Source: a virus
Lineage: Duplodnaviria; Caudoviricetes
Reading direction: 5' to 3' (one strand)
IMG/VR virus record: IMGVR_UViG_3300049846_002441
Location: 1 to 50,202 of that record
Length of the DNA: 50,202 bases
In this document: positions 297 through 24,505 of the stretch, piece after piece
Layout: each line of letters opens with the position of its first letter
How positions within the stretch are numbered: the stretch's first letter is position 1
Notes under the pieces: model-generated
Seen by the model: only the letters and a program-made list of their open reading frames with translations
The model's database searches: none
What the model was told of the DNA's origin: nothing
Translations under genes and position numbers: made by a program

Positions 297-1259
297 TCAA
301 ACCCTAGCACCGCTGATCGTTTTTGCCTTTGCTGAAATCATCGCGTCGTAGCCGGTAACCGGCATCAAATGCGCGTACGTTGTGAGAAGTGTTTGCATAC
401 TGACGCCGGTCACTTCCGAAAGATTGAAGAGCGGCACGCCGGCCGCGACGCGCCACGTCAGGAACGTGTGCCGAAAGACGTGTGGTGTGACACCGCTGAC
501 CCCGGATAGGCGGCAAAGTTCCTTGCAGGCCTCACCCGCGTTGAACTTCGCTGGAAGCACTGTGTCGCCTCGTTCGTTGCCGCAGTCGCGAAACCAGCGG
601 CGCAGAACGCGGAACATCGCAGGGTGCATCGGCTGTCTAGCCGCTCGTTTTTTCGTCTGTGGTTTGGTGCGGTCAACGAAGTCGACCGTTCTTGTCGCAA
701 AGTCGACTTGCGGAAACCAGCGAAGCGCACTTATGCGGCCGCTGCGCTGAGCGGAGTAGAGCGCGATCCAGACGAAGACCTCTTCCGGGCCGAGTTTCCA
801 CGCAGCGTTGCCGTTGCGCATCTGGCGGTATTTTCTGGCGGCGCGAAGGAAGTCGGCGGCCTCTTTGCGAGTGAGGAAGCGCTCACGGCGCGCCCAGCCA
901 ATGTTGGTGTCAAAGGTCGGCGCGGCGCCGGGCGAAAGCCTGCGCTTTCGAATGGCGCGGTTTATCGCAGCCTTGAGTAAGCGAAGATCCTTGTCGATCG
1001 AGTGCAGTTTTGACGGGTTTCCTATTTCCCCCGCGGTTCTCAGGCGGATGAACTCGTCGGTATCCTCCTGCGTAACGTCACCTATTGGCGTGTCCCCGAA
1101 GTGCGCCTTCAGCCACTTGATGCTTGTCCTCGAGCTCGGCGCGGTTGCGGCGGACCCAGAGCGCGTCAGGTGGGTGTCGTAGTACCAGTCGAGAAGTTCG
1201 TGGATGAACACGAGAATCGACGGGGTCTTGATGCTTGGCGGCTCAACGTGCATGTTCAT
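297..1259 (-). CDS. int: Tyrosine recombinase/integrase
   Basis: Catalytic motifs YSAQR (R), QTKK (K), PHVFRHT (HxxR), TTYAH (Y); core-binding region upstream. Start codon uncertain. Confidence 0.9.
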   Translation of the reverse strand: MNMHVEPPSIKTPSILVFIHELLDWYYDTHLTRSGSAATAPSSRTSIKWLKAHFGDTPIGDVTQEDTDEFIRLRTAGEIGNPSKLHSIDKDLRLLKAAINRAIRKRRLSPGAAPTFDTNIGWARRERFLTRKEAADFLRAARKYRQMRNGNAAWKLGPEEVFVWIALYSAQRSGRISALRWFPQVDFATRTVDFVDRTKPQTKKRAARQPMHPAMFRVLRRWFRDCGNERGDTVLPAKFNAGEACKELCRLSGVSGVTPHVFRHTFLTWRVAAGVPLFNLSEVTGVSMQTLLTTYAHLMPVTGYDAMISAKAKTISGARV

Positions 1260-3129: not shown

Positions 3130-3186
3130 GTAACCTCCGTTGCAGGGTGCCCCCGGGATCTACCCGGGGGTGTGGTCGACTTTGGC

Positions 3187-4860: not shown

Positions 4861-5027
4861 ACTTGCACCCTTATGCGTCGATCGTCATCTCGAGTTTCTG
4901 CTTGCTGCAAGCCCAACTCAACAGCCTCGAGCAGGGCGTCGTGAAGCTCGCCCTCTGTCAGATCTTCAATGCGCTTTCCGCGCCAGTATATCTGGATGTC
5001 GGTTAGGATTTTGGCTTGCTTGGTCAT
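4857..5027 (-). CDS. Small hypothetical protein starting MTKQAKILTD
   Basis: 56 aa, ATGA overlaps at both ends; N-terminus encoded by repeat A. Confidence 0.65.
   Translation of the reverse strand: MTKQAKILTDIQIYWRGKRIEDLTEGELHDALLEAVELGLQQAETRDDDRRIRVQV
4998..5026. repeat. Junction repeat A, copy 1 (also 5556-5584 and 5842-5870)
   Basis: GTC(G/A)GTTAGGATTTTGGCTTGCTTGGTCA, 29 nt, three copies, one mismatch. Confidence 0.95.
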
Positions 5028-5269
5028 GGCTTGGCCTTGATGGATCGAACGGCGGCACTTGATCCGTTTTCGAGCCCCTGCCAGTAAACAGCCACGAACG
5101 CATCTCTAAGACCTTCTAGCCCGTGCCCTAGGTTATAGTGTACCGTTGGACCGATGATGTCCCAAAGATGATCGCGTGTGTCTTCGTCGAGTTCTAGCTT
5201 GGTGAAGTCACGGCGCGGCACGACCGGGACCGGCGGGAGCAACATTATCGGGATGCGCCGTTCACTCAT
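5024..5269 (-). CDS. Hypothetical protein
   Basis: Overlap-coupled ORF in the small-gene array. Confidence 0.65.
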   Translation of the reverse strand: MSERRIPIMLLPPVPVVPRRDFTKLELDEDTRDHLWDIIGPTVHYNLGHGLEGLRDAFVAVYWQGLENGSSAAVRSIKAKP

Positions 5270-5525
5270 CGCCGAGCACCTTGGTCGCGTTTTGAATCAC
5301 GACTTGCGGGTGCAGCGTGCCGTTGCGCGCCTGTGTGCGAAGGTAGGAAAGCGCCCCGCGCGCTGCCTCTAGCTCCGCGTCAAGGACTGCGATGTGCTCA
5401 ATAAATTCATCGCGATGGTCGGCAGCCTGTGCCCATGCCTCACCCACATCGCCGGGCGGGTCTTCAATCTCTTCAAAAATCTCTGACATCCTTTCAGCGC
5501 TTACCCTCTTGGCATCACAAGTCAT
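5262..5525 (-). CDS. Hypothetical coiled-coil protein (in-frame upstream GTG at 5585 also possible)
   Basis: GAGGTGA SD and ATG supplied by repeat B; repeat A lies in frame upstream. Confidence 0.65.
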   Translation of the reverse strand: MTCDAKRVSAERMSEIFEEIEDPPGDVGEAWAQAADHRDEFIEHIAVLDAELEAARGALSYLRTQARNGTLHPQVVIQNATKVLGDE

Positions 5526-5548
5526 AAAATCACCTCTCGAATCACTTT
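5520..5548. repeat. Junction repeat B, copy 1 (also 6291-6319)
   Basis: AGTCATAAAATCACCTCTCGAATCACTTT, 29/29 identical; contains SD and ATG on the minus strand. Confidence 0.95.
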
Positions 5549-5581
5549 TGCGCGCGTCAGTTAGGATTTTGGCTTGCTTGG

Positions 5582-5746
5582 TCACTTGAGCCACCTACGC
5601 GGCCAAAGCGGGAGCATCCACTTGGTATGCTTTTGCGCACTGACATGGCTCAGGTAAACTAGGCCAATCACTCGCGTCATTATGAACACGACCGACCAAC
5701 TGCGACCAAAGTGAATTTCAATCCCGCCTGCGACTTTGCTAATCAT
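5582..5746 (-). CDS. Small hypothetical protein (54 aa)
   Basis: MISKVAGG...PRRWLK*; ATGA/GTGA overlaps at both ends. Confidence 0.5.
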   Translation of the reverse strand: MISKVAGGIEIHFGRSWSVVFIMTRVIGLVYLSHVSAQKHTKWMLPLWPRRWLK

Positions 5747-5871
5747 GCTCGCACAACCCTTCCTTCAGTGATGAACCAGTGAAACCCGCACGACTGACAA
5801 CTGATGGACGGCGAACCTCGCTCAATCAACCATGCGGTCGCGTCGGTTAGGATTTTGGCTTGCTTGGTCAT
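5743..5871 (-). CDS. Small hypothetical protein starting MTKQAKILTD (42 aa, one CxxC)
   Basis: ATGA overlaps at both ends; ...ISCQSCGFHW... Confidence 0.5.
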   Translation of the reverse strand: MTKQAKILTDATAWLIERGSPSISCQSCGFHWFITEGRVVRA

Positions 5872-6296
5872 GGGGTGCCGCCAAAAAACGGGATCATCTT
5901 GTTTTCCTGATAGCTCGATGCGATGCGTGGCCGCACGTGCTGCGCCACAGTCTGCCCATCCGGCATGACGATGTTCGCCAAAAACTCATCCTCGAACGTG
6001 GCTATCCCGGACGCAACCGCTTCCAGTTTTGCCTTGATGCACATGGCCAGCGCGCGCCACAGGCGCCGCTCTTCCTGAGCGAACTTCTCAGGCGTAAATT
6101 TACCGGCGTTCGGCATTTGGAGGCGGAACATCACGCGCCGACCCTTGGCCTCGAAAGCAAGAATCGCCTCCGTCGCGTTCTGCCCGCTCATGAACGACTT
6201 GGCGCCGTACTTCGTTAGCAGGCGCTCAATTTCAGAGCGTGTCTGGCCGACCGGGACGCGCGTGCTCTCAGCGAAGCGGCGGCTTGGTCCAGTCAT
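5868..6296 (-). CDS. Conserved phage hypothetical protein
   Basis: Start in repeat B; TRSEIERLLTKYGA...WRALAMCIKAKLEAV...FEDEFLANIVMPDGQTV recalled as a widespread phage family. Confidence 0.8.
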   Translation of the reverse strand: MTGPSRRFAESTRVPVGQTRSEIERLLTKYGAKSFMSGQNATEAILAFEAKGRRVMFRLQMPNAGKFTPEKFAQEERRLWRALAMCIKAKLEAVASGIATFEDEFLANIVMPDGQTVAQHVRPRIASSYQENKMIPFFGGTP

Positions 6297-6390
6297 AAAA
6301 TCACCTCTCGAATCACTTTCGCTACCGCCAGGAATCGTACCACGCAAAATCCGGCTCAATTCTGCCGCCAGTCGCAATCTTGTAGTTTTG

Positions 6391-6696
6391 CTACGGACTG
6401 AGCGCCGGGTTTTCCATCGCGGCGGGTCTGATCGCCATACAGACGAAACCGCGCTCGATGCCGAACGCTGGCCCGGCGATCAAATACGTCACGTCCACAA
6501 GCATGTGACGCCCCGTGTACGCCTCCCGCTTTGGCAGCCACTCTCGCAGGTGCAGGATATCGCCGACGCGGAACGGCTGTTCGCCGTCGTCCTTGCGGAC
6601 CTCGAAGGTTTTCTCGCCGCGCTCGATCGCTTCGTAGAATTCGGGCCATATTTTGAGCCTGCGTACGGCCCTGTGTTGGAGTTCGTCTTTGCTCAT
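6391..6696 (-). CDS. DUF3850 / ASCH-like protein
   Basis: LKIWPEFYEAIERGEKTFEVRKDD..FRVGDILHLREW..YTGR. Confidence 0.88.
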   Translation of the reverse strand: MSKDELQHRAVRRLKIWPEFYEAIERGEKTFEVRKDDGEQPFRVGDILHLREWLPKREAYTGRHMLVDVTYLIAGPAFGIERGFVCMAIRPAAMENPALSP

Positions 6697-7094
6697 GGCC
6701 TGGCCTTGAGTGCTGCAATTTTTTCCATCAGATTTCCCCATTGCCGCTCTTGCTCTTTCACGTCGCGCTTGATCGGCGCGAGTGCGGCCTTGTGCTTTTC
6801 GATGCGAATCTCAAGGATTTTTGTGCAATTTGGCGCAAAGTCCGCTGGCAGGGTTGGCGCAAGGCGCGCCCACTCATCTAACATCCATGAGAAATCCAAC
6901 TCCCGCGCCTTCCCCTCGGCGGCAACCAAATCCTTCACGCGCTCCGCATCGGTGGCTAGTGATCGGTCTAGGTCGTGACGCAACCGCTCGACTTCGGCGA
7001 ACACAATGGCGATAGCCATCGTCGGTGCCGGGGGCTGCGGGCCGCTCCAATTCACCCACTCCCGCACCCGCTCCATCGCTTCCTCTATCGTCAC
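6693..7094 (-). CDS. Hypothetical coiled-coil protein
   Basis: GTGA/ATGA overlaps at both ends. Confidence 0.65.
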   Translation of the reverse strand: MTIEEAMERVREWVNWSGPQPPAPTMAIAIVFAEVERLRHDLDRSLATDAERVKDLVAAEGKARELDFSWMLDEWARLAPTLPADFAPNCTKILEIRIEKHKAALAPIKRDVKEQERQWGNLMEKIAALKARP

Positions 7095-7360
7095 GGCTTC
7101 ACTTCCGCGTTAATAGATGCCGCAATAGCGCGGCGAAGTTGGTCACTTGGTATTTTGGCAAAACCGATAACCTCTATCGCAGCGACAAGCATTTCGTCGC
7201 TCACGTCCTCCGGCCGTATGGCGGCAAGGCCGGCGCGGGCCTGCGGTCGCCAGTCGCGCCACGCCGGCCAATCACCCATCTGCGATTTGGCGTCCGCCGA
7301 TTCTTCCGGGCCAACGCTTTCGCAAATCGCCCGCGCCATTCTCTCAACAATGCCGGTCAT
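7091..7360 (-). CDS. Hypothetical protein
   Basis: Start in repeat C; IVERMARAIC...QARAGLAAIRP..SDEML motif typical of alphaproteobacterial phage small proteins. Confidence 0.7.
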   Translation of the reverse strand: MTGIVERMARAICESVGPEESADAKSQMGDWPAWRDWRPQARAGLAAIRPEDVSDEMLVAAIEVIGFAKIPSDQLRRAIAASINAEVKP

Positions 7361-7373
7361 GGCTTCTCCTGTG
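7355..7373. repeat. Junction repeat C, copy 1 (also ~7540-7569 and ~7736-7763)
   Basis: TCA(T/C)GGCTTCTCCTGTG(GTTCGGCTGCG); minus strand reads CAGGAGAAGCC(A/G)TGA, i.e. SD plus stop/start. Confidence 0.93.
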
Positions 7374-7545
7374 TGAGAACGTTGACAAGCGTTTCGGCTT
7401 CGGTAAATCGCATCGGGTTTTCGCAGTACGCAAGCGCGTCCTTGGGCTTCAGTCCAGTCGCTTGGCAAAGCCTACACCTGCCCACGAATGGCTGTCCCTT
7501 TGGCGATGTGCGCTCAATGGCGTGGAGTTGCTGCGTCGTGGTCAT
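7357..7545 (-). CDS. Small Cys-containing hypothetical protein
   Basis: Bounded by two copies of repeat C; ends QEKP. Confidence 0.7.
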   Translation of the reverse strand: MTTTQQLHAIERTSPKGQPFVGRCRLCQATGLKPKDALAYCENPMRFTEAETLVNVLTQEKP

Positions 7546-7739
7546 GGCTTCTCCTGTGGTTCGGCTGCGAATGTCGTTGACGCGAAAAACCGAGCGCCAC
7601 GAAACCGGCCGTATTCGAGATGGAAAAGCTCGGTCAAGTACAGTGTCCCGCCATCGACGCGAATTGCCGTGATCAACATCGATTTCATGTTGACGATTGT
7701 CTTCTCGACTAACTTGTTCTCGTCCTTCTTCTTGCTCAC
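7542..7739 (-). CDS. Small hypothetical protein
   Basis: Bounded by two copies of repeat C; ends QEKP. Confidence 0.6.
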   Translation of the reverse strand: MSKKKDENKLVEKTIVNMKSMLITAIRVDGGTLYLTELFHLEYGRFRGARFFASTTFAAEPQEKP

Positions 7740-7771
7740 GGCTTCTCCTGTGGTTCGGCTGCGTGGCCATG

Positions 7772-8743
7772 TCAGTAAGCCTTCAAAGTCTCAGGGTTGT
7801 TGCCGACGCCGAAGATGCGCCGCGCGTAATCTTCACCAACACGCCCCGGTGAGCCGAAGTCGCCGCGATCCTTCCGCTCCTCCAGTGCCATCTCAATGCC
7901 GCGCGGCAGATCGATCTCGGCGCCGCGCTCGTACGCCGGCCAGTTGTCGGCGGTCAGACACGCGAAGAAATCGCGGATCATCGCGCGCCAAACAATCAAA
8001 CCCCAATCGAGCGTTATGACCGACGGTGTGACGATGTTCACAAGATGTGGTGGTGCGTTTTCTTGGCAGATCCACGCGAAGTCGTGCGGCGGCGCACCCT
8101 CAACGCGCGTGATGATATCGAGTTGCGACGCGGCTTGAATGAACCACCCGCCGTCGTGCACCTTCATCGCGATCGAGCGCGGGTGTACAGATCCGCTCGT
8201 GGTTTTGTAGTCGCGCACGCACACTTTGTCGTCGATCCTGATGCGCACGTCCGGCCGCGATTTCAACCAAATGCCCGTGTCCTCGTCTTTCACGAAATAC
8301 GAGAGCTCGTTTTGACCTTCTGTTGTCAGCCGGTGGCACTCATCATCTGCCCAAAGGGCGTCGCGCATCACCAGAACGCGCGCCATTTGATCCGGTGTGA
8401 GACAAACGGCGCCGGACTCCCTCGCCTCATTCCTAAGATATCTTTTGCGAGCGGCAGGCGTATTCTTGTCGACCGCAACAACGAGGCCTTGCCAGTTCTC
8501 CTCAAGAGCCGCCGCATGTGCGGCGGTGCCGAGATCGAAGCGCGTTACGCTATCGGAGGGGCGATCCGGGTTCAGGTACGAGTCGAACCACATCACGCGC
8601 GGGCACTCTTGGTAAAGCGCGATCGCCATCGAGGCGCTGAACGAAGGCCCATCAGCGCAATCGGCGTGATACCAGTCGTTCGGCATCTCGTAGACGCCGG
8701 GTTCGGTGATTTTCTCGCCGTAGCGGATTTTGGTGATTTTCAT
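7772..8743 (-). CDS. PD-(D/E)XK exonuclease VIII/RecE-like (DUF3799)
   Basis: PGVYEMPNDWYHAD, FSAS, LGTAAH, NELS, KSRPD, RDYKTT, QAA. The track start at 9517 is antisense to the GapR-like gene. Confidence 0.88.
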   Translation of the reverse strand: MKITKIRYGEKITEPGVYEMPNDWYHADCADGPSFSASMAIALYQECPRVMWFDSYLNPDRPSDSVTRFDLGTAAHAAALEENWQGLVVAVDKNTPAARKRYLRNEARESGAVCLTPDQMARVLVMRDALWADDECHRLTTEGQNELSYFVKDEDTGIWLKSRPDVRIRIDDKVCVRDYKTTSGSVHPRSIAMKVHDGGWFIQAASQLDIITRVEGAPPHDFAWICQENAPPHLVNIVTPSVITLDWGLIVWRAMIRDFFACLTADNWPAYERGAEIDLPRGIEMALEERKDRGDFGSPGRVGEDYARRIFGVGNNPETLKAY

Positions 8744-8813
8744 TGGTTCGTCTCGTTGCACAGACAGTTCTACGCCTTCAAAACAAAATCGCAACAAAAA
8801 AGCATCGGGGCAA

Positions 8814-8842
8814 TTGCAAATTTCCTCGTTAACAAATATGAA
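8814..8842 (+). promoter_or_regulatory. Putative sigma70-type rightward promoter at the main divergence point
   Basis: TTGCAA-17 nt-TATGAA; the spacer holds GTTAAC. Confidence 0.5.
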
Positions 8843-8846
8843 CGAT

Positions 8847-8926
8847 CTGCCGCTTTCGGGCGGCAGCTTCCTCTCGTTGCAGGACGAAGCGCAGGCGGCG
8901 GGGCCTCTCTCCGGCGCTCCGCCGCC
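8847..8926 (+). ncRNA. Putative three-hairpin leader/antisense RNA
   Basis: Hairpin 8847-8866 (UUCG loop), seed CUUCCUCUCGUUGCAGG 8867-8883, 11-bp stem 8894-8926 with CUCUCUCC loop. Confidence 0.5.
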
Positions 8927-8950
8927 ACACAAACCCTGAAAGGAGTAAAT

Positions 8951-9520
8951 ATGGCCCGAAGAAAAAATCCCCGAACGGACCCGAATGAGACTGAGGCCGA
9001 CGAGGCCGAGCAGGCGCGCTCGAACCAGCCCGGCAAGCGCGACCTGGCGCACCACCTCAAGGAAATCTCCGCCGCGAAGCAGCGCAAGGCCGACGCGGAT
9101 ATGGCGCTGGCGTCGAAATACTCTGCCGCGGAGGAGTGCGGGCTCGACAAGAAGGCGATCAAGCACCTGCTGAAGCTCCGCGACCAGGACAGCGAAAAGT
9201 CGAAGGCGGAATTCCAGACCCTCATCAAATACCTGCAGTGGATGGATATGCCGATTGGCGCGCAGTTGCACTTCTTCGACGATCCGACAAAGTCGCCGGA
9301 AGAAACCGCGATCGCGGAGGGTCGCCAGGCCGGCAAAGAGGGCGCGTCGGCGAACACGAACCCTTATCCGGAAGGCTCGAAGTTGTACCCTCGCTGGGAA
9401 GAGGGTCGAATGCTCGGCCAGGCAGATCTGGTGAACGGCGCCGGTAAGGTGACACCCATCGCCGCCGGGAAGAAAAAGCGCGGCCGGCCCCCGAAGGGCC
9501 AGCTGGCGGAACTGCATTGA
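8951..9520 (+). CDS. GapR (DUF2312)-like DNA-binding domain fused to an Rmf/CrpP-like C-terminus
   Basis: AAGGAG SD; KYSAAEECGLDKKAIKHLLKLRDQD...IKYL (GapR-like); EGRQAGKEG..NPY..WEEG (Rmf-like); basic tail KKKRGRPPK. Confidence 0.75.
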   Translation: MARRKNPRTDPNETEADEAEQARSNQPGKRDLAHHLKEISAAKQRKADADMALASKYSAAEECGLDKKAIKHLLKLRDQDSEKSKAEFQTLIKYLQWMDMPIGAQLHFFDDPTKSPEETAIAEGRQAGKEGASANTNPYPEGSKLYPRWEEGRMLGQADLVNGAGKVTPIAAGKKKRGRPPKGQLAELH

Positions 9521-10086
9521 TTTCGCTCGGCTTAGACCTTTCGTCTCACTCGGGGTGGGCCACGTGCGCCGGTGACGGCACCAGGCCCACCTCTGGCGTT
9601 TGGGATCTGCCGTGGACTGGTGAGATCCGGCGCATGTCGGCCATGCTGCTGAGGCTCGACACGCTTTTGACGCAAATGATCCGGGCTCGCGAAATCAAGA
9701 TCTGCGCGATCGAGGAGCCGTTTCAGTCCTTCGGTGCGAAGAATGCGAAAACCCAGCTTATGCTCTGGAATCTGTGCGGAACGGCGCAGGCTGTGTGTGC
9801 ACGCGAGGGCGTCGACTATCTGATCGTGCAGCCAGCGCGGTGGCGAACGGTGTTTCTGCCGCACGCAAACTGCAAAGGCGACGAATGGAAGCGCGCCGCG
9901 GAGCGGCGGTGCCAGGATCTCGGGTGGCCAGCGACCGATCACAACGCGGCCGAGGCCTGTGGAATTTGGGCCTGGCTCAAATCCGGAAACGAGTCTGGCT
10001 GGCAGGCCAAAGTTCTCGGGGCTGAGAAAATGGCGCTTCCGAAGGCAACGCAGAAATTCTTCGAAAAGCGCGCCAGATTGGGGTAA
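9517..10086 (+). CDS. RuvC-like Holliday junction resolvase
   Basis: LGLDLS..SGW, AIEEP, WRTVF, DHNAAEACGIW. Confidence 0.82.
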   Translation: MISLGLDLSSHSGWATCAGDGTRPTSGVWDLPWTGEIRRMSAMLLRLDTLLTQMIRAREIKICAIEEPFQSFGAKNAKTQLMLWNLCGTAQAVCAREGVDYLIVQPARWRTVFLPHANCKGDEWKRAAERRCQDLGWPATDHNAAEACGIWAWLKSGNESGWQAKVLGAEKMALPKATQKFFEKRARLG

Positions 10087-10141
10087 TTGCGCTTTTGCGC
10101 AAAAGCGGTATTCTCCGACACGATCGTGAGGGAGACATCAC

Positions 10142-10432
10142 ATGCCGCGCATGAATCTTGGATTGGGCGTCAAAGTAACGACGGATTGGGTGCCGTGCTC
10201 GCGCGGAACGTATGTCTGGACCGGCAATGGTGGTACGTGGAATGGCGCAACCGCGCAGCTGCAGACAAAAAGCATAGACGGGTCGACGGCGGTCAACGTG
10301 CCGGGAGCCGCGCTGAACGCGGACGGACAGTGGACAGTCGACATCGGGGATGATGCGGAAGTGCGCATTGCCATCTCTGGTGGCCCCCCAACCGGCGCCG
10401 GCCTATCTTTCTCTTTGGCGCGCATTCTATAA
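10142..10432 (+). CDS. Small beta-rich probable virion protein
   Basis: GGGAG SD; GTWNGATAQLQ..DG motif; precedes the fibre-like gene. Confidence 0.6.
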   Translation: MPRMNLGLGVKVTTDWVPCSRGTYVWTGNGGTWNGATAQLQTKSIDGSTAVNVPGAALNADGQWTVDIGDDAEVRIAISGGPPTGAGLSFSLARIL

Positions 10433-11806
10433 ATGTCCGCCGCATCCCCGAGGCCCCCCGCGCGCGGCAGCGCCCGCCCGACAATCCACCCGCCATGTTC
10501 TGGGGTGCGGGATTTTGAAGACGGCATCCACTATGATGCAAGCGTAAACGCCGGGGGTGGCGGCTTTATGTCGACCAAAGTCCCGGGGGCCGCCGCGCGC
10601 GTCGGCGCCCTGACGGATTTCTTCACTTTCACCGGCGACAACAAGTCCTACTATCGCGGCTCGGCCGGGCTACTCATTCCATCAATCACGAACACCCCGC
10701 GCATCGAGTACGACGCTGCTGGGGGCGTTTTTGGGTTGTTGATCGAAGGGTCGAGAACGAACTCGCTTTTGCAAAGTGAGGATTTTTCAACCACCTGGAC
10801 GACTACAAACGCCGCTGTGGCGCCAAACCAAACCGCGGCACCGGACGGCGCGACAACGGCCGACCGGCTAACCGAAGATGCGACCGCCGCCACCAACCAC
10901 TACGTCACGCAGGGCGTCTCAAAAGCAGCGGCGGCCATCCAATACACAGCAAGTGTGTGGCTGAAAAACGAAACCAAGGGCTTCGCGCACCTTCGGATAG
11001 CCAACGGCGCCTTGACAAACGGCGCCGGCATCGGCGTCAACCTCTCGACGGGGGCGCTTGGGGGTGTATACACGTTCGGCGGCAGCCCATTCACCGGCGC
11101 ATCTGCCAGCGTCGTTACGTATGCAAACGGCTGGTACAGGGTCATACTTACAGCGACGTCGGAGGCGGCGAGCACTACCCTAGCGACGCAAATCTTGCTG
11201 GCAACAGGCACGAGCTCCGGTGATGTGACGTTCAACGGCGACGGCTCATCGAGCATATTCATGTGGGGCGCGCAACTCGAAACGCCGGTTGCGTTTGCAT
11301 CGTCTTACATTCGCACCACAACGGTGAGCGTGACGAGGGCCGCCGACATCTGCACGCGGGCGTTTGGGGGCGAGGTCAGCCAGACGTCAGGGACGATATT
11401 TGTTCGGGGGCGGTGCGGCGTGAACGTATCGGGCGCCGACTACGCCATGGTTGAGATTGACGACGGTACAAACAACGAGCGCATAAGCACGCAGCGCTTC
11501 GGCGGTGGTGCGAACTATCGCTTTCAGATCAATGACGGTGGCGTCTCGCAGGGGGTTTTGACCAGCGGAACCCTTGCCGATCTGACTGAGTTTAGGCTCG
11601 CTGCGTCGTATGCCGCCAATGACCTGGCGTCGGTCTTAAACGCAAGCGCCCTGCAAACTGACGCGAGCGCGACACTACCGACCGTCACGACGATGCGCAT
11701 TGGGACGCGCTTTGGTGGTGGCGATCCGTTTTTCGGCCACATCCGCTCTATTGATTACTGGCCAGAGCGAAAATCCAATGGATTCCTCCAGCAACGTGCG
11801 GCGTGA
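10433..11806 (+). CDS. Head-spike/fibre-domain virion protein
   Basis: PRIEYD..GLLIEGSRTNSLLQSEDF, APDGATTAD, NGWYR, WGAQLE..ASSYIRTT..TRAAD. Confidence 0.8.
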   Translation: MSAASPRPPARGSARPTIHPPCSGVRDFEDGIHYDASVNAGGGGFMSTKVPGAAARVGALTDFFTFTGDNKSYYRGSAGLLIPSITNTPRIEYDAAGGVFGLLIEGSRTNSLLQSEDFSTTWTTTNAAVAPNQTAAPDGATTADRLTEDATAATNHYVTQGVSKAAAAIQYTASVWLKNETKGFAHLRIANGALTNGAGIGVNLSTGALGGVYTFGGSPFTGASASVVTYANGWYRVILTATSEAASTTLATQILLATGTSSGDVTFNGDGSSSIFMWGAQLETPVAFASSYIRTTTVSVTRAADICTRAFGGEVSQTSGTIFVRGRCGVNVSGADYAMVEIDDGTNNERISTQRFGGGANYRFQINDGGVSQGVLTSGTLADLTEFRLAASYAANDLASVLNASALQTDASATLPTVTTMRIGTRFGGGDPFFGHIRSIDYWPERKSNGFLQQRAA

Positions 11807-12501: not shown

Positions 12502-13131
12502 ATGACCTGGCCATTCGACCCGCACCCACCGCTTTCGTATGACGTGATCTTGGCCGACCCGCCGTGGCACTTCGAAAACTACTCGGCGAAGGGTGAACGC
12601 AAGGGTGCGCGGCGACACTACGCCACGCTTGGCTTCGATGAGATCGCCGCAATGCCCGTGTCAAAGCTCGGCCGCGGCGACTGCATCCTCTTCATGTGGT
12701 GTTGCTGGCCGACGCTGCCGCAAGCCGTTGATGTTTTGGAGAGATGGGGCTTTCGGTATGTGACCGGCGGCGCGTGGCACAAGCGAACTTCGACCGGGAA
12801 ATCGGCCTTCGGGACCGGCTATGTGATGCGATCGGCGACTGAGCCGTATCTCATCGGCACGCTCGGAAATCCAAAAACCGTTCGCGACGTACGAAACGTG
12901 ATTGAAACTTCCGACGCGTCTGTGATAGACGCAGAGCGACGAGAGCATTCGCGCAAGCCGGAGGTGCAATATGAAACCTTAGAGCGAATGTTCCCCGCCG
13001 CCCTCCGCCGCATCGAGCTTTTCGCTCGAAATCAGCGACCAAAATGGGATGCGTGGGGGAACGAAACCAAGAAATTCGGCGCAGCGCCGAATGAAGTGCC
13101 TGCAACCAAGCAACGAAAGGACGCAGCATGA
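12502..13131 (+). CDS. MT-A70 family adenine methyltransferase
   Basis: VILADPPW, LFMW, WGFRY, GTGYVMRSATE, EHSRKP, IELFAR, WGNE. Confidence 0.93.
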   Translation: MTWPFDPHPPLSYDVILADPPWHFENYSAKGERKGARRHYATLGFDEIAAMPVSKLGRGDCILFMWCCWPTLPQAVDVLERWGFRYVTGGAWHKRTSTGKSAFGTGYVMRSATEPYLIGTLGNPKTVRDVRNVIETSDASVIDAERREHSRKPEVQYETLERMFPAALRRIELFARNQRPKWDAWGNETKKFGAAPNEVPATKQRKDAA

Positions 13132-18935: not shown

Positions 18936-19562
18936 CTACACCTCCAATACGACTTGCTCAGGCACCGGCACAAACTCCGGCCGCTCCAGTGCGCCGCCGA
19001 TCGACAGGAAGGGTGAGCGTTGAAACGGCACAGGCACCTCGCACGCCTCGACGACGCCCGGGATCTCGCACAGCCAAAGCCGCTTGGTGGATCCGTCGAG
19101 CATGAGAACGTCAGTTGCCGGGATCTTGCGGCGCGCGCACTCGCGCCTGATCCGCGCTCCGCGCTCCGCGCGCACCACCGCATCAATATCGGGGACGTCT
19201 TCACCCCGCCCCGCCCGGAAATATGTGCCTGTCACCACCGACTCACCATCGGCGAAGCGCACCAACACCGCGCGCGGCTCAAGGAACGTGTGCCGCTTCG
19301 GCCGCACCACAATGCCCGCCGCGTTCTTGCGGCCGAACCACTTCGGCACAAGCCGATATGTGGCGCATGCCTCACCATAGGACAGCCGGGTGTTGAGGCG
19401 CGGCACGGGCGCTTTGGGCGAGGCTTGCTTCTGCATCTGACGCTCAAGAGCACCGTGCGACGACGCCAGCCGTTCCGCCAACTGGCGCCAATGCTCCGGC
19501 GTGTCGATCTCCACTGCCTCTTGCAAGGCGCGCTGCGCCGCCGTCATGATTTGGGTATTCAT
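18936..19562 (-). CDS. Hypothetical protein
   Basis: ATGA overlap with the upstream methyltransferase stop. Confidence 0.65.
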   Translation of the reverse strand: MNTQIMTAAQRALQEAVEIDTPEHWRQLAERLASSHGALERQMQKQASPKAPVPRLNTRLSYGEACATYRLVPKWFGRKNAAGIVVRPKRHTFLEPRAVLVRFADGESVVTGTYFRAGRGEDVPDIDAVVRAERGARIRRECARRKIPATDVLMLDGSTKRLWLCEIPGVVEACEVPVPFQRSPFLSIGGALERPEFVPVPEQVVLEV

Positions 19563-21304
19563 GCCGACACCGTGAGCAGAACAGTACGAACGTCCGTTCC
19601 GGCGAACGTGCCCGCCGGCAACTCCTCCCAACTGTCGGCGATGGGCTGAAGTTCGCGCTGTTGCCGGGGCCCGTTCGCGCAGATCGCCACAAGGCGCCCT
19701 CCCGGCTTCAAGAACTGCCGCGCGTGCAAAACATGGCGAATGTCCGAACCGTTCTCAAACGGCGGGTTCATCAGCACCGCATCGAACTTTCCCAAGTCAC
19801 CGTTGCATTGCAAAAAGTCCGCGCGGTGAATGTCGAAGTTGTCCGAATTTGCGTACATCTGCAGATTGCGCAGCGCCTCCAGCCTTTGAACAAGCTGGTC
19901 GTTGATTTCTACCGCCACCACACGCACGCAATCTGCGCCTGTGGCGTCATCCCAAATCGCCTTAACGAGCTCGCCGGTGCCAGCGCTCGGCTCTAGGATC
20001 CGCAACCCACTCGCCCGCTTGCCCGGCAGGCGCGCCACCATCTGCCGCGCCACGTCGCGCGGCGTCGGGAACAACTGGTTCGCCGTCACCACCTGCACGC
20101 CGCCAGCCTTGAGCGTTTGCTTGATGGCGTCGAAGTCTGTCGGCGCCGAGGGCGCGCGCGGAGCTTCGGCCGGCGGCGTGCCGATCTCGGCAAGATAGAA
20201 GCCGCAGCCGCAGCCGGATTCGGTCAGGCGCCCATCTGCGCGCGCTTGCTCAACCTCTGCCCTCGTCATGACGCCTTTTACCTTGTCGAGTGGAACGATA
20301 GAGGGAAATGTGCGCCCACGGTCGCCGCTGTATGACATGCGCACCGACACCGACACGCGGTTGACCTTGCAGACATACGCCCAACCCCCGCGCGTGTGCC
20401 CCGGCGCCTGCCAGCAACGCACAGCGCCGCCGACTTCCGGGCCCTTCTTGTCAGTCTCCAGGCCGCCCGCTTCACCCAGCATGGTGCGTTCATACAGAAG
20501 GCGGTTATTGGTGTGGTCGAGCCATCGTTGCCAGTGCTCGATCACCGCCGGGAGCGCCACCCGCCGCTGACGCGCAACTTCGGCGACGTCCATATTCCCG
20601 CGATCCGGCTGAAGCGCGCTCCATGCAGAGAACCGCTTACCATCCGGCGCCGTGATCGTGTCGCCGCACGACTCCGCAACGTTCGCGTAAGCGGTCGCAA
20701 TCTCGCGCGTGAGGCTGTTACGCGACCAAAACGCAAGCCGCTTTTCAGCCTCGGTCTTTTGCTTCGCGAACTTCCGCGCGTCAGATTCAAGCCCCTTGAT
20801 GCGCCGCGCGCGCACCGCCGGCAGTTCCTTGTATTTGGCGTGAGCGACCGCACCGGCGGCGCGCGCGACCCAATATTTCGAGGTTTCCCAAAGCCTAACC
20901 GTCTTGTTCATGCCCGATTTGATGCGCTCCGCATCGCGGCGCGCCCGCCGCTCCGAGTGGTGGCCCACGAGAATCGGCTGACCAAACGGGATCCCGTCAG
21001 CAATCGCCGCGACCGCGTCGCGCGCCCGCGCTGCATCTGCGAGCCGCTTTTCGCCGTAGTCGTCGAAGCGTGCCGCTCGATCTTCGGCGCGCTCGGTTAG
21101 CGTTGTGTCTTCGTCGCCGATTTCACCGCAGAGCTCGAGCAGTAAGTCCGCACGGCCCGGCGTCCACATCGGCGCCACAAAAAGTTCTTGCCTGGGCGCC
21201 CACTTGAACCCGGCCGCCTTCACGCGCGCATAGGTTCCCGCGTCAAGCCGCGTGCTCGAATAGAGCCGCAATTTGTTGTCCTCTGGTGAGTATGTCGCCT
21301 GCAT
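19559..21304 (-). CDS. DUF3560 domain fused to an N6-adenine-type methyltransferase
   Basis: ATYSPEDNKLRLY, IPFGQPILVGHHSE (DUF3560); LFPTP, ILEPSAGTG, MNPPF. Confidence 0.92.
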   Translation of the reverse strand: MQATYSPEDNKLRLYSSTRLDAGTYARVKAAGFKWAPRQELFVAPMWTPGRADLLLELCGEIGDEDTTLTERAEDRAARFDDYGEKRLADAARARDAVAAIADGIPFGQPILVGHHSERRARRDAERIKSGMNKTVRLWETSKYWVARAAGAVAHAKYKELPAVRARRIKGLESDARKFAKQKTEAEKRLAFWSRNSLTREIATAYANVAESCGDTITAPDGKRFSAWSALQPDRGNMDVAEVARQRRVALPAVIEHWQRWLDHTNNRLLYERTMLGEAGGLETDKKGPEVGGAVRCWQAPGHTRGGWAYVCKVNRVSVSVRMSYSGDRGRTFPSIVPLDKVKGVMTRAEVEQARADGRLTESGCGCGFYLAEIGTPPAEAPRAPSAPTDFDAIKQTLKAGGVQVVTANQLFPTPRDVARQMVARLPGKRASGLRILEPSAGTGELVKAIWDDATGADCVRVVAVEINDQLVQRLEALRNLQMYANSDNFDIHRADFLQCNGDLGKFDAVLMNPPFENGSDIRHVLHARQFLKPGGRLVAICANGPRQQRELQPIADSWEELPAGTFAGTDVRTVLLTVSA

Positions 21305-21352
21305 TCAAAACCTCCCGTTGCAAGTTTGAAACTGTACCGCCGCACGCGTTAC

Positions 21353-21727
21353 CTATTCGTTAACGAGTGCGCACGTGATAACGAATTCGCCCGCGTCCCC
21401 GGGCGATGCGATCACCTCCAAGTGGTGAAGCGTCGTTCCGAACGGCCCGCGCTCGACCGTGTGCCACATCCTCACCGTGAAGGCGCTTTCCGGCGCGCGC
21501 TCCATTGCCGCGCGGATCGCCACGACCAGCAAGCGCCGCCGCGCCAAAGGCCACAGGCCGCAACGCATCTCCTCAGGTGTGGCCATGACGCAGGCCGCCC
21601 ACGCCGCCCGCGTCAACGCTACTTTGCACTTGATGCCGAACAGGCGCGCATCGGTGGTGACGTCCACTAATGTGCCGTCCGTCACCGCCTGCGCCCACGT
21701 GGGCGCCTCCTCATCCACAAGCGCCAT
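21353..21727 (-). CDS. DUF6573-like protein
   Basis: TWAQAVTDGTLVDVT..A...GI...VALTRAAW..CV; PGDAGE.VIT. Confidence 0.7.
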   Translation of the reverse strand: MALVDEEAPTWAQAVTDGTLVDVTTDARLFGIKCKVALTRAAWAACVMATPEEMRCGLWPLARRRLLVVAIRAAMERAPESAFTVRMWHTVERGPFGTTLHHLEVIASPGDAGEFVITCALVNE

Positions 21728-21821
21728 GACTTACCGCCTTCCCGATCAGCTGCGCCACGGCAATGCCGGCCAACACGAGCAGCGCCAAGACCAGCGCCGC
21801 GTCACCTAAGCGCCGCCGCAT
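21711..21821 (-). CDS. 36-aa membrane peptide
   Basis: MRRRLGDAALVLALLVLAGIAVAQLIG...; fills the gap between neighbours. Confidence 0.45.
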   Translation of the reverse strand: MRRRLGDAALVLALLVLAGIAVAQLIGKAVSHGACG

Positions 21822-22042
21822 TGCGCCTCGGCTTCATGATCCGCCGGGAGGGGTTCGCACGAATAGGGCGCAACATCGGCGCCACAGGCCGGGCAGTCGT
21901 CATGCTCACCACTCTCGCGCATGATTTCGACATAGCGGTGACCGCACGCGCACGCGAAGCGCGACTCCCAATCGCACGAACGATCCCCATCACGCGCCGC
22001 CCGCGCGCGAAACTGAGCCCTCAGCGCTGCCATAGTTTCCAT
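21806..22042 (-). CDS. Small zinc-ribbon-like protein
   Basis: GGAGG SD; CACGH...DDCPACG. Confidence 0.7.
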   Translation of the reverse strand: METMAALRAQFRARAARDGDRSCDWESRFACACGHRYVEIMRESGEHDDCPACGADVAPYSCEPLPADHEAEAQCGGA

Positions 22043-22108
22043 TCTCTACCTCCAGCAAAAACAAAGGCCGCACACAATGCGCGGCCCCTGGAATTTACAC
22101 CGAAAAGG

Positions 22109-22123
22109 TTAAGAGAGCGTTAA
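22109..22123 (-). promoter_or_regulatory. CtrA-type box, perfect match
   Basis: Minus strand TTAA-CGCTCTC-TTAAC. Confidence 0.7.
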
Positions 22124-22311
22124 GCCGCCTTCGACGCAACCAGCGCGCGGTGCGCGTCTTCCAGCACGCGAATCCGCTTGTTGATGTCTCTAACCGCGCG
22201 CCTGTTCCCGGCGCGTATCAACTTCAGTGTTATCAGATCGACCAGCGCTTGACGCACCACTAAGGCGACCTCGCCCAATTCCTCGGGCGTGAATGTGACG
22301 GTGCGCTTCAT
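22120..22311 (-). CDS. Hypothetical protein
   Basis: ATGA overlap; GAGGT upstream. Confidence 0.6.
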   Translation of the reverse strand: MKRTVTFTPEELGEVALVVRQALVDLITLKLIRAGNRRAVRDINKRIRVLEDAHRALVASKAA

Positions 22312-22709
22312 CCGTATTTGACCTCGCGCATGGCGATGCACTGCAAGAAGACGTCCGCTGTTATGGCGTCTTCATCCTCTGCCAGCCACGCGGCGAAGTG
22401 GTGCCCGTGCTTCTCCGCCATGTAAGTAATCCCTTTGCCCATGACTTTCGGCGTTACGAGGTGGCGCTTGATGTTATCTCCCTCCACCTCTTTCGATTCG
22501 TCGAGAATTTCCAACACCTCGAATTGCCAGTCTGGGGCGTTGTAGAAGAGGGCGTTGGCGTACCAGTAAGGAAGCGCCTCCGCCACCTTGAGCGAATGAG
22601 AAACCGGAAGCACCCCCGCGCACCACGCGCGCGTCATGTGGTTCTGTTCAACCGCTGCGCACATGATGTCGGCGATCCGTTTCGGGGTGATTTCAAGGGT
22701 GATTTTCAA
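22308..22709 (-). CDS. Conserved phage hypothetical protein
   Basis: GGAGG before TTG; C-terminal DAITADVFLQ...EVKYG motif. Confidence 0.7.
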   Translation of the reverse strand: MKITLEITPKRIADIMCAAVEQNHMTRAWCAGVLPVSHSLKVAEALPYWYANALFYNAPDWQFEVLEILDESKEVEGDNIKRHLVTPKVMGKGITYMAEKHGHHFAAWLAEDEDAITADVFLQCIAMREVKYG

Positions 22710-22711
22710 GC

Positions 22712-22948
22712 TCAGCCCTCCGCCCGAATCGACCGGCTGACCGGCCGGAACATGCGCGCGATCCGCCCGCACTCGCGTTGCTCGTTTAGATCGTCGGCCG
22801 CCCAAGCGGCCGCAAGATCCCGCGCGAATTGGTGCGCCTTCACCTCCGACATTTTCAGGCCCTGCAGTTCGCCCTCGTAGTAGACGGCAAACCCGCCATC
22901 TTCCGCGCGGATCAACATCCGTTCGCGATAGTAGAAAAACGACGCCAT
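22712..22948 (-). CDS. Hypothetical protein
   Basis: TGCAACGAGGAGG leader before ATG. Confidence 0.65.
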   Translation of the reverse strand: MASFFYYRERMLIRAEDGGFAVYYEGELQGLKMSEVKAHQFARDLAAAWAADDLNEQRECGRIARMFRPVSRSIRAEG

Positions 22949-23025
22949 AACGCGCCCTCCTCGTTGCAATGCGGCTCGATTGCCGCCCTCCGGGCCGATC
23001 CGAAGACCGGCCCCAAAGGCGAAAT

Positions 23026-23199
23026 TCAGTCCCGAATTCGCATCAAAAGGCGCGCTACTTCCAGCCGGTCAGCCTTCACGCCTTCCACTTCGTCGCCGGG
23101 CTCAACGTCGCTAAGCCACGAGTCGAGAGCGTCCCGGTAGCATTCCAGGGCATCCGTTAGGACACGCTGCTCATTCTTTGTGAACTGGCGCACCTTCAT
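23026..23199 (-). CDS. Small hypothetical protein
   Basis: ATGA overlap; MKVRQFTKNEQRVL... Confidence 0.55.
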   Translation of the reverse strand: MKVRQFTKNEQRVLTDALECYRDALDSWLSDVEPGDEVEGVKADRLEVARLLMRIRD

Positions 23200-23360
23200 G
23201 CAAGCACCAATAAGAACAGCGCCGCCCACAGGACGGCCGTCACCGCCAAAACACCCACAACCACGCCCAAGGGCAGATATCGCAGCGCCTCGCTCGTCGG
23301 CACCTCGCGCCGCGCGCGCGCCGCTTGGAACGTGGGGCAATCATCGAGCTCGAAGCGCAT
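23196..23360 (-). CDS. Small protein with C-terminal transmembrane helix
   Basis: TGATG overlap; LPLGVVVGVLAVTAVLWAALFLLVLA. Confidence 0.55.
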   Translation of the reverse strand: MRFELDDCPTFQAARARREVPTSEALRYLPLGVVVGVLAVTAVLWAALFLLVLA

Positions 23361-23560
23361 CAGGCTCCCCGAATCTCGTAAAGTGCGCGCGTTATTTCTT
23401 CCAATTGCCGGACTTGGAGCGCGGCCGCGTGCGCGCTCGCCAAGGTCGCCCACACTTGCGCCTCAGCAAGCCGGCCCGCCGAAATTGCCGACAAACAAAG
23501 GCCCGCCGTCTCCTCGTATCGGCCGGCGATCTCGCTCGAATGTGCGAATTCGAATTTCAT
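23360..23560 (-). CDS. Hypothetical protein
   Basis: Overlap-coupled to both neighbours. Confidence 0.6.
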   Translation of the reverse strand: MKFEFAHSSEIAGRYEETAGLCLSAISAGRLAEAQVWATLASAHAAALQVRQLEEITRALYEIRGA

Positions 23561-23769
23561 TGGCGCGCACCCCTGATAATGCGCACCGTGAACGCTTCGC
23601 CGTTGTCGAGCGTTACAATCAAGTTGTTGGGGTCACTCGCGTCAACGCACTCGACCGTAGCGCGGAAGCCCGTTTCTATCAGGTCTCCGCTCGCATCTTC
23701 GGTGAATTCGAAGCATTCGCGACCCTCTATAAAGTCGCGAATCAGAATTCCAATATCCCGCGTGTTCAT
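23557..23769 (-). CDS. Hypothetical protein
   Basis: TGCAACGGAGAG leader before ATG. Confidence 0.65.
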   Translation of the reverse strand: MNTRDIGILIRDFIEGRECFEFTEDASGDLIETGFRATVECVDASDPNNLIVTLDNGEAFTVRIIRGARQ

Positions 23770-23829
23770 GTTCTCTCCGTTGCAGCAAAGCGCACACACG
23801 CGCCCGCACACCATCGCACCACAAAAACC

Positions 23830-23844
23830 TTAAGAAACCGTAAA
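23830..23844 (-). promoter_or_regulatory. CtrA-type box, one mismatch
   Basis: Minus strand TTTA-CGGTTTC-TTAA, directly after a terminator. Confidence 0.6.
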
Positions 23845-23847
23845 CGC

Positions 23848-23874
23848 AAAAAGGGCCCGCGTGTCCGCGAGCCC
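23848..23874 (-). terminator. Intrinsic terminator after the RadC-like gene
   Basis: GGGCTCGCG-GACA-CGCGGGCCC-TTTTT on the minus strand. Confidence 0.75.
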
Positions 23875-23898
23875 CTCACAATCGCGGTTTGTGGGCGG

Positions 23899-24447
23899 TC
23901 ACATAAAGCCAAGCGACCGCAGCGACGCGCACCCATTCGCGCCAACGACGATATGATCGTGACACGCGATGTCAACCGCGCGCAGCGCTTCAACAATGTC
24001 TTTCGTCTCGCTGATATCCGCCCGGCTTGGCGATGGGTCGCCGGACGGGTGATTGTGCGCCAAGATCACGCCGGTCGCGTTTAGAACCACCGCGCGCCGC
24101 ACAATCTCGCGCCGGTGTATCCAGCAATTATCAGCCGTCCCCTCGGCCAAAACTTCGTCGGCAATCAGCCGGTTTTTCGTGTCACAATAGAGGACGCGGA
24201 CTTGTTCGCGCGGCAGATCCGCCATCCGCGCCATGAGATACCGCGTCACTTCCGCATAGGACGTCATCGACTCGCGCTTGCGCAGCCGCGCGGCCGTGAA
24301 TTCCTCCGCAAGCGCCAAAATCGCCGCCAACTTCGCCCGCGTGTCGGCTGTCAAACCCTCCGCCGCGTATGCTTGCGAAACATCGCTAAAACCCTCGATT
24401 TCCGCCGTGTCGCCTAACAAAACCCGCAAGTGTCGCAAATTCCGCAC
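23899..24447 (-). CDS. RadC-like JAB domain protein
   Basis: LPREQVRVL, HRREIVRRA, HNHPSGDPSPSRADI, DHIVVG; GGGAGG before GTG. Confidence 0.92.
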   Translation of the reverse strand: MRNLRHLRVLLGDTAEIEGFSDVSQAYAAEGLTADTRAKLAAILALAEEFTAARLRKRESMTSYAEVTRYLMARMADLPREQVRVLYCDTKNRLIADEVLAEGTADNCWIHRREIVRRAVVLNATGVILAHNHPSGDPSPSRADISETKDIVEALRAVDIACHDHIVVGANGCASLRSLGFM

Positions 24448-24489
24448 GTGTGATCCTCCCGTTGCGAAGGGCATTTGAGCGCGAAAGCG

Positions 24490-24504: not shown

Positions 24505-24505
24505 C

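Follow-up and report, generated by a model that had tools for sequence, protein, structure and literature searches.

A start-associated motif at seven gene starts of a temperate phage, and an eighth copy in the putative leader of a GapR-like gene

We analysed IMG/VR virus record IMGVR_UViG_3300049846_002441 over its full length of 50,202 nucleotides (nt; hereafter the window), which is the complete genome of a temperate phage, and found that seven of its non-structural genes share a motif in which (T)GCAACG is fused directly to a Shine-Dalgarno (SD) run 8-13 nt before the start codon. The segment at 8867-8883, flagged in an initial annotation as the pairing seed of a regulatory RNA, is almost certainly an eighth copy of this start-associated motif and the sole copy without a gene. 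It is placed between two strong hairpins in the 207-nt gap (8744-8950) between a RecE-like and a GapR-like gene. Our favoured reading, which we put forward tentatively and which may well prove wrong, is that the leader RNA of the GapR-like gene pairs in trans with the leaders of the motif-bearing genes. In every positional respect, but not in sequence, the motif agrees with the start-associated sequences (SAS) of Cluster K mycobacteriophages, of which it is an analogue.

A motif fused to the Shine-Dalgarno run marks seven gene starts

Six of the seven gene-linked copies lie on the minus strand:

21308-21324, minus strand: copy before the DUF3560-methyltransferase gene (start 21304)
24452-24468, minus strand: copy before the RadC-like gene (GTG start at 24447)
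23770-23786, minus strand: copy before the gene starting at 23769
22954-22970, minus strand: copy before the gene starting at 22948
8746-8762, minus strand: copy before the RecE-like gene (start 8743), with a degenerate SD half
3130-3146, minus strand: copy before a 48-codon open reading frame (ORF; start 3129)
13107-13123, plus strand: copy before the gene starting at 13128, the sole plus-strand copy

Hexamer enrichment, computed on the -28 to -5 region of 62 leaders, placed TGCAAC first, above any SD hexamer (6 of 62 leaders compared to 0.35 expected, P 1.9e-6), and GCAACG was present in 7 of the 62 compared to 0.82 expected. All seven gene-linked copies are oriented with the transcription of their gene, six of the seven genes start with ATG, and six of the seven are preceded by gaps of 48-207 nt. 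The spacing from GCAACG to the GAGG run differs by 0-2 nt between copies. Across the whole genome GCAACG occurs 70 times and TGCAAC 30 times, mostly within genes. The pattern is specific to this phage: a search for the motif followed by an ORF of at least 40 codons gave 6 matches in this 50-kb genome and 9 (5 distinct) in 85 other loci totalling 494 kb. No strict copy occurs in the gene block 24954-49679, and looser look-alikes stand before 24730, 3441 and 27233.

A second repeated element occurs in the gaps of the second leftward gene block, where we found five TTAA-N7-TTAA boxes with at most one mismatch (repeat family D3; 21349-21363, 22109-22123, 23830-23844, 24490-24504 and 24794-24808), located 25-51 nt upstream of start motifs or their look-alikes. 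Genome-wide there are six such boxes compared to 2.5 expected, a number equalled by 5 of 100 shuffles. The boxes resemble the consensus of the alphaproteobacterial CtrA box. The 8744-8950 gap holds a half-site only, GTTAAC at 8828.

The eighth copy lies between two hairpins upstream of a GapR-like gene

The features of the gap and its two flanking genes are these:

8867-8883, plus strand: the flagged segment, CTTCCTCTCGTTGCAGG, the complement of the motif (here the anti-motif), inside the putative GapR-like leader
8867-8883, minus strand: the same segment read as the eighth motif copy, CCTGCAACGAGAGGAAG, start-less
8847-8866, plus strand: hairpin 1, a stem of 8 pairs capped by a UUCG-type loop, immediately behind the promoter-like site
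8864-8892, plus strand: hairpin 2, optional and weak, whose loop would expose GUUGCA, complementary to the specific half of the motif
8894-8926, plus strand: hairpin 3, ~13 pairs with a CU-rich loop, without a U-run after it
8814-8842, plus strand: best rightward promoter-like site, TTGCAA (8814-8819), 17 nt, TATGAA (8837-8842), 8/12 matches
8767-8794, minus strand: leftward promoter-like site, TTGCGA, 16 nt, TAGAAC, 8/12 matches
7772-8743, minus strand: RecE-like exonuclease gene (phrog_412, 2.3e-53; PF12705), first gene of the leftward operon
8951-9520, plus strand: GapR-like gene, ATG at 8951, of which the element is the putative leader

The promoter-like element, the hairpins and the segment all lie where the initial annotation had placed them. 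Two DNA runs show the probable source sample, which covers 6500-11500 in several contigs, one of them (7686-10496) crossing the gap without differences, alongside short unrelated fragments; no RNA run was listed for that interval. The 17-mer is unique in the window allowing up to 3 mismatches, and it shares its DNA strand with the six leftward motif copies. The first 20 nt that follow it on the minus strand contain a CTG but neither ATG, GTG nor TTG, which bears out the earlier description of the copy as start-less. The two outer hairpins, likewise predicted, are real by comparison with shuffled sequence: hairpin 1 folds at -13.4 kcal/mol (z -4.41, equalled by 1 of 200 shuffles) and hairpin 3, folded as 8892-8928, at -26.3 kcal/mol (z -4.62, equalled by 0 of 200). 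The gap is AT-rich only at ~8760-8846.

A hexamer scan returned four promoter-like sites with 8/12 matches, two of them rightward, their first hexamers starting at 8761 and 8814, and two leftward, starting at 8842 and 8794; all four lie left of 8843, and none is found on the minus strand to the right of the segment. A plus-strand transcript very likely crosses the segment, because the GapR-like gene needs a promoter within the 207-nt gap and all promoter-like sites in it lie left of 8843. The layout gives no indication of a leftward transcript across the segment, which suggests that it is read rightward alone. With transcription in that one direction, the GapR-like leader would hold the exact complement of the shared motif.

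The assignment of the gene at 8951 rests on distant similarity. Its protein scores 15.9 bits with PF10073 (cut-off 22.6), and with a profile of six homologues all five best matches among solved structures are GapR (E 0.015-0.12). Homologues at 59-64% identity lie on contigs of 23-52 kb. Residues 116-152, at the C-terminus, show a weak match to ribosome modulation factor (PF04957, 18.8 bits compared to a cut-off of 27.9, E 0.0017; PDB 2jrm, E 0.76), and this stretch is kept in five of the GapR-like homologues (59-64% identity). On the other side of the gap, the N-terminus of the RecE-like protein aligns with its homologues, which start at the annotated methionine. An N-terminally extended RecE-like protein was considered, since a CTG lies 3 nt after the SD of the orphan copy, in frame, with 41 codons open between; we rejected it because the minus-strand frames score as non-coding and the homologues start where they do.

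The segment is complementary to the leaders of motif-bearing genes

The initial annotation named six leftward leaders as pairing partners of the segment, and all six pairings exist, with energies of -24.3 (start 21304), -23.4 (24447), -22.7 (3129), -19.9 (22948), -19.5 (23769) and -18.5 kcal/mol (8743), compared to a median of -11.6 kcal/mol across 63 leaders. The targets are leftward in these six cases, as had been proposed, but the seventh motif gene, at 13128, is rightward. When the segment was slid along both strands, the leaders of 21304, 24447 and 3129 were the three best sites besides its own antisense. Seven of the 62 leaders pair at -18 kcal/mol or below, a count reached by 4 of 300 full shuffles of the segment and by 9 of 300 shuffles that keep its CU-rich half; the mean of the six best pairings (-21.7 kcal/mol) was reached by 0 of 300 shuffles in either control. 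The shuffled background called for at the outset thus supports the complementarity.

We also compared the segment with other transcribed sequence. The 120 nt upstream of each gene, taken on the transcribed strand, yield 6,448 windows of 17 nt; eight of these match five leaders by at least 8 Watson-Crick pairs, and all eight lie at 8867-8874; elsewhere no window matches more than four leaders. The 10-nt core with at most one mismatch has 10 matches, of which only that at 8871 is intact on the strand expected in RNA, the other transcribed match (4182, inside a gene) carrying a core mismatch. Among the eight motif copies, the complement of the segment is also the one that suits the start-associated copies best, with a mean of -20.7 and a weakest pairing of -16.9 kcal/mol, whereas for the complements of the other seven the means range from -17.0 to -18.9 and the weakest pairings from -11.5 to -15.3 kcal/mol. 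At positions where the copies carry either A or G the segment carries A, and its complement can therefore use G-U pairs. That the segment is the best universal complement is suggestive, and is by itself a result with a 1-in-8 chance.

The motif parallels the start-associated sequences of Cluster K mycobacteriophages

To our knowledge, SAS have so far been known only from Cluster K mycobacteriophages. Pope et al. 2011 (PMC3203893) place them 3-7 bp upstream of non-structural gene starts; the genes concerned are mostly more than 50 bp from their upstream neighbour, the copies keep one orientation, and each subcluster K1 phage has a single reversed copy away from gene starts. Whether an RNA or a protein binds the SAS is left open by these authors. 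The role of SAS is still called unknown in sections of papers from 2024-2025 (PMC11373665, PMC12699233).

Set beside these excerpts, the two motifs have much in common. Both are short and asymmetric with an SD core and extend beyond the pairing with 16S ribosomal RNA, and both lie a few nt before start codons that are mostly ATG (6 of 7 here). Both occur at non-structural genes only, mostly behind gaps of ~50 nt or larger (6 of 7 here), both keep one orientation to transcription and add a lone copy off gene starts, and in both a subset is preceded by a repeated promoter-region element, which is ESAS in Cluster K and the TTAA-spaced boxes here. The differences lie in the sequence, which is unrelated ((T)GCAACG plus SD here compared to a 13-mer in Cluster K); in copy number (7 plus 1 here compared to 15-19); in the spacing of the two halves, which varies by 0-2 nt here; in the host, here probably an alphaproteobacterium to judge by gene content; and in the place of the orphan copy, which here is the main divergent control region and not the neighbourhood of the genome end.

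In Mycobacterium phage Anaya, the right half of the genome contains 16 SAS copies in forward orientation and a single reversed one, which is found in a 385-nt unannotated gap between two rightward genes; a rightward transcript would therefore carry the SAS complement. This stretch folds with a z of -3.99, presents the complement in a 10-nt apical loop and matches 138 Cluster K records. We aligned 11 genomes, chosen from an evenly spread listing of the 138 matching records to span the identity range, and obtained a consensus structure of 39 pairs in which 93.5% of cells were paired, compared to 36-45% when the partners were slid. Eight of the consensus pairs show changes in both partners, and 3 of 500 shuffles gave as many. 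The hairpin loop holds the anti-copy in 7 of the 11 genomes; the loops of Ekdilam and Amgine are CU-rich, those of Keshu and SirPhilip differ, and all four of these phages keep 15-18 forward copies. Full-text searches, among whose results the ZoeJ paper did not appear, found no paper linking SAS to antisense or small RNA.

Near the right end of Cluster K genomes there is thus a conserved, covarying two-hairpin element (59799-59959 of the Anaya record), over which some records annotate a hypothetical protein. The element may be a structured RNA aimed at the SAS. In both systems the single odd copy amounts to a complement within a structured, probably non-coding RNA stretch, and the parallel gives an anti-motif RNA in the present phage a higher prior.

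That SAS are the target half of an RNA regulon, in which early genes share a leader motif and one structured RNA carries its complement, is a broader proposition that we hold to be rather doubtful. If it were true, the complement would be in the GapR-like leader here and in a hairpin loop near the right genome end in Cluster K, one RNA would tune the translation of a whole gene set at once, two unrelated phage lineages would have reached the same design, and the function of SAS, open since 2011, would be directly testable. A SAS-type design with unrelated sequence in a phage of a quite different, probably alphaproteobacterial host suggests that grouping genes at the level of translation is a general strategy of phages.

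The anti-motif in the GapR-like leader: a proposed role and the points against it

As we envisage it, the GapR-like mRNA would start near 8849 and carry in order hairpin 1, the anti-motif, hairpin 3 and its own SD, and the segment would be transcribed only rightward, ~20-35 nt into a leader of ~100 nt. During rightward early transcription this leader would pair with the motif-bearing leaders, with the methyltransferase gene and the 3129 ORF as the best partners, RadC next and the others after them. Pairing would hide the ribosome-binding sites, leading to less translation or to exposure to double-strand RNases, and would couple the two divergent early programmes. An anti-motif RNA of this kind is a concrete and cheaply testable hypothesis, and if it fails, the orphan copy still marks the spread of the motif via copied gene-start junctions.

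A number of observations weigh against this proposal. The first concerns the complementarity itself, which is automatic for any motif copy that is reversed in a transcript and is no proof of selection for pairing. The segment pairs with the leaders because it is one more same-strand copy of a repeated motif, and the pairing is no evidence of a purpose-built seed. Generic pairing controls are uninformative owing to composition bias: GC-rich 17-mers beat the segment on raw duplex energy, and U-rich 17-mers beat it when G-U pairs count toward contiguous helices. Subtracting the energy needed to open both partners leaves net values of -10.3 (21304), -9.8 (3129), -5.7 (24447), -4.4, -4.3, -1.1 (8743) and -0.6 kcal/mol. 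The complementarity to six leftward leaders exceeds chance, but only 2 of the 7 targets fall below -9 kcal/mol net, and two are near zero. Hairpins in the target leaders of RadC, the methyltransferase gene and the 3129 ORF, folded alone, are no better than shuffles, and on the same result we rejected the notion that the motif is a conserved small SD-masking hairpin.

The leader as a structure presents difficulties of its own. Hairpin 2, the partial fold postulated for the segment, is possible and does place GUUGCA in its loop, but it is weak and not significant (8864-8892: -7.8 kcal/mol, z -0.73, equalled by 43 of 200 shuffles). The rightward promoter-like site is present as TTGCAA-17-TATGAA, but with 8/12 matches it falls below the threshold of a stricter promoter scan, which returned no site in 8300-9400. 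A terminator scan lists neither outer hairpin and there is no U-run behind either, so that no discrete free RNA of ~80 nt, as first proposed, is indicated, and the candidate RNA is at most a leader. In addition, a 33-codon ORF with coding-like codon use spans the element. Searches of DNA, protein and sequence patterns found no relative with this region, and in Cluster K 4 of the 11 genomes are without the anti-copy, so such an RNA is not essential there.

The identity of the targets is the last of these points. They comprise recombination, methylase and RadC genes and small genes of no recognised family, the late operon is not among them, and one, 13128, shares its rightward block with the leader. 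Because the targets exclude the late operon and one of them is rightward, this is not the profile of an immunity repressor. An anti-motif RNA would not replace cI/cro, and the initial reading of a repressor RNA in that role is only partly supported.

Alternative explanations for the eighth copy

Nearly as likely as the anti-motif reading, and still on the unlikely side, is that the copy has no role as a trans-acting RNA and remains from a leftward gene start that has been lost, or from a recombination joint, either inert or bound by a factor. The motif would then serve translation initiation, as an extended ribosome-binding site or as a site for a phage or host factor on the mRNA, and the hairpins would serve the GapR-like mRNA in another way, for example its stability. 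Such a history is consistent with the strand and layout of the orphan, which are those of the six leftward copies, and with the fact that the copy most similar to it, the RecE one, is only 121 nt distant. Start regions are commonly copied in this genome (duplicated start junctions and paralogous gene starts of families D2, D7, D9 and D10; identical leaders at 5525/6296 and 7360/7739), and the gaps of at least 48 nt before 6 of the 7 motif genes are what a strong stand-alone ribosome-binding site predicts. Cluster K SAS are likewise thought to act in translation, in the passages that concern them (PMC3203893, PMC11373665), and 4 of the 11 Cluster K genomes do without an anti-copy. However, a dead copy would not be expected to retain all 11 core bases and their flanks in a compact regulatory gap, and there is no leftward promoter upstream that could have served a lost gene. 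The segment is moreover the best universal complement of the eight copies and the only intact anti-copy on a transcribed strand.

A DNA-level role is less probable by some distance. A candidate repressor might bind the motif as double-stranded DNA and block transcription in the manner of stoperators, with one site in the divergent promoter region and the rest just downstream of early promoters. This would cover all eight copies by a single mechanism, including the orphan beside the promoters; it agrees with the alignment of 7 of 7 gene-linked copies with the direction of transcription and with the position of the copies in the second leftward block, 25-50 nt downstream of the repeated promoter-region boxes, and the phage has an integrase and no recognised repressor in the 50 ORFs scanned. 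Against a DNA operator, the GCAACG-GAGG spacing varies by 0-2 nt, which fits poorly with fixed protein-DNA contacts, and the invariant part is only 6-7 bp, which matches 70 GCAACG and 30 TGCAAC occurrences genome-wide that are mostly intragenic. That the motif is always fused to the SD speaks for a role at the RNA level, the late operon is without any copy, and the same 50 ORFs, scanned with Pfam, include no recognised DNA-binding protein.

We regard as equally improbable that the element encodes a small protein or a leader peptide translationally coupled to the GapR-like gene. The ORF in question is:

8838-8939, plus strand: candidate upstream ORF of 33 codons, ATG at 8838 to TGA at 8939, spanning the whole element

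Its codon use scores 0.149 per codon compared to -0.11 to -0.39 in the other five frames; real genes average 0.245 (standard deviation 0.128), and 1.6% of off-frame 33-codon windows reach 0.149, which becomes a chance of ~0.1 once six frames are allowed for. The GC content by codon position (0.73/0.55/0.79) is gene-like, and the frame ends 11 nt short of the GapR-like ATG, with the GapR-like SD overlapping its stop codon. However, no SD precedes 8838, transcription from the best promoter-like site would begin beyond the ATG, and two very stable hairpins lie inside the frame. An exhaustive protein search, a weak test for so short a query, returned only the window's own 69-amino-acid ORF (1 match, 100% identity).

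Least probable of all is an action in cis only, in which the CU-rich segment would pair with the GapR-like SD region (8930-8948) and gate translation: the minimum-energy fold of 8843-8951 does close a CUC.UU.CAGG / CCUG.AA.GGAG helix (z -2.35), but this helix is interrupted and weak, the expected number of segment pairs with 8930-8949 is just 0.3 to 1.3 in three other contexts, and the match to the non-SD half of the motif is left unexplained. Sigma-54 sites, nut-type sites and an origin of GCAACG in 16S pairing were considered and dropped, since their spacings or complements do not appear to fit.

Comparison with other known systems

The P4 CI, P1/P7 C4 and N15 CA RNAs are RNA-based phage controls, each processed out of the operon that it regulates and each with a seed that is an inverted, same-strand copy. 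The candidate leader resembles them as a short hairpin-flanked RNA complementary to repeated leader or ribosome-binding sites, with several targets and without a protein repressor. In contrast to them, a direct copy is used here and is read from the other strand, neither a terminator nor a sign of processing is seen, and the targets are not a lytic or replication switch. Within 8700-9000, Rfam gave six matches with E no higher than 10, each at 12.8-20.7 bits compared to gathering scores of 43-80; the P4 CI, C4 and CA RNAs are not among these six, although the existence of models for them was left unchecked.

One of the matches, CcsR1 (RF02791), has 13 bits compared to a gathering score of 65.3 (E 1.2). 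AbcR is an alphaproteobacterial small RNA that acts against SD sequences with CU-rich loops. The element shares with the anti-SD RNAs of alphaproteobacteria two CU-rich stretches, the segment and the loop of hairpin 3, that could mask SDs, but it differs from CcsR1 and AbcR in that the discriminating pairing is that of the non-SD GUUGC core.

The stoperators of Cluster A mycobacteriophages such as L5 are DNA sites of fixed length, with a known repressor, in early and late operons. The motif is like them in its many asymmetric sites in short gaps, oriented with transcription, together with a site in an early-promoter region. It is unlike them in its variable spacing, its fusion to the SD, the late operon without copies and the lack of a repressor in the 50 ORFs scanned. 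Stoperators are also contrasted with SAS in the passages on SAS in PMC3203893.

Relatives of the region

GenBank phages gave no DNA match to 7700-9600. Searches with the RecE-like protein found no relative in viral or genome contigs; its best non-self homologue is 68% identical and lies on a contig of 1,122 bp, and the others are at most 41% identical. A profile of 12 RecE sequences led to 80 metagenome loci that have only RecE in common with the window and, at 15 of them, the AAA_24 neighbour; the leader is absent in all 80, two of which have a distant GapR-like gene kilobases away. The GapR-like protein, alone or as a profile, gave no relative in viral or genome contigs, and a search with the AAA_24 protein likewise found none. 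The terminase has a relative at 71% identity on a 28-kb fragment, estimated by CheckV to be 62% complete, where we found no RecE and no motif, and twelve relatives of the methyltransferase carry a different leader. As exact DNA patterns in viral contigs, the 17-mer occurred at 14 loci and a two-copy pattern at 5, all in unrelated contexts.

The phage genome and its gene blocks

The first and last 127 nt of the window are identical (1-127 = 50076-50202), so that the genome is circular and complete, with ~50,075 bp and a GC content of 61%. Its host is probably an alphaproteobacterium, because of the GapR-like gene and of RecE homologues with Mesorhizobium names. Its main blocks are as follows:

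297-1259, minus strand: tyrosine integrase (family scan)
up to 8743, minus strand: leftward block with DUF5131, AAA_24, DUF3850 and the RecE-like exonuclease
from 8951, plus strand: rightward block with the GapR-like gene, a RuvC-like resolvase, a tail protein, an MT-A70 methylase and a weak replication-protein match
~18936-24730, minus strand: second leftward block, with the DUF3560-methyltransferase and RadC
from 24954, plus strand: rightward block with the terminase homologue, whose large ORFs lay outside the family-library scan

None of the 50 ORFs scanned, which are a part of the total, has a helix-turn-helix, cI or Cro domain; the earlier statement that a repressor gene is missing is thus borne out in these 50 but holds only at the Pfam level, and a novel repressor could hide among the proteins without a recognised family. 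Across 1-50202 there is no transfer RNA or transfer-messenger RNA gene, and no Rfam family reaches its gathering score anywhere in the window. The tail-protein gene (10433-11806; phrog_5939, 2.9e-66) stands in the early rightward block, 14 kb from the block with the terminase homologue.

The leftward early block has expanded via copied gene starts. The genes starting at 5525 and 6296 have an identical 26-nt leader plus ATG (5520-5560 and 6291-6331), three tandem small genes have a common stop-SD-start junction (7355-7373, 7540-7558 and 7734-7752), identical leaders also occur at 7360/7739, and the first ten codons are common to three to four small genes (4998-5029, 5556-5587 and 5842-5873). 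In the second leftward block, the minus strand has a GC-rich hairpin with a T-run behind it (24509-24530), placed between the ORF at 24551-24730 and the promoter box of RadC; it is terminator-like, and this block therefore looks like several short transcription units.

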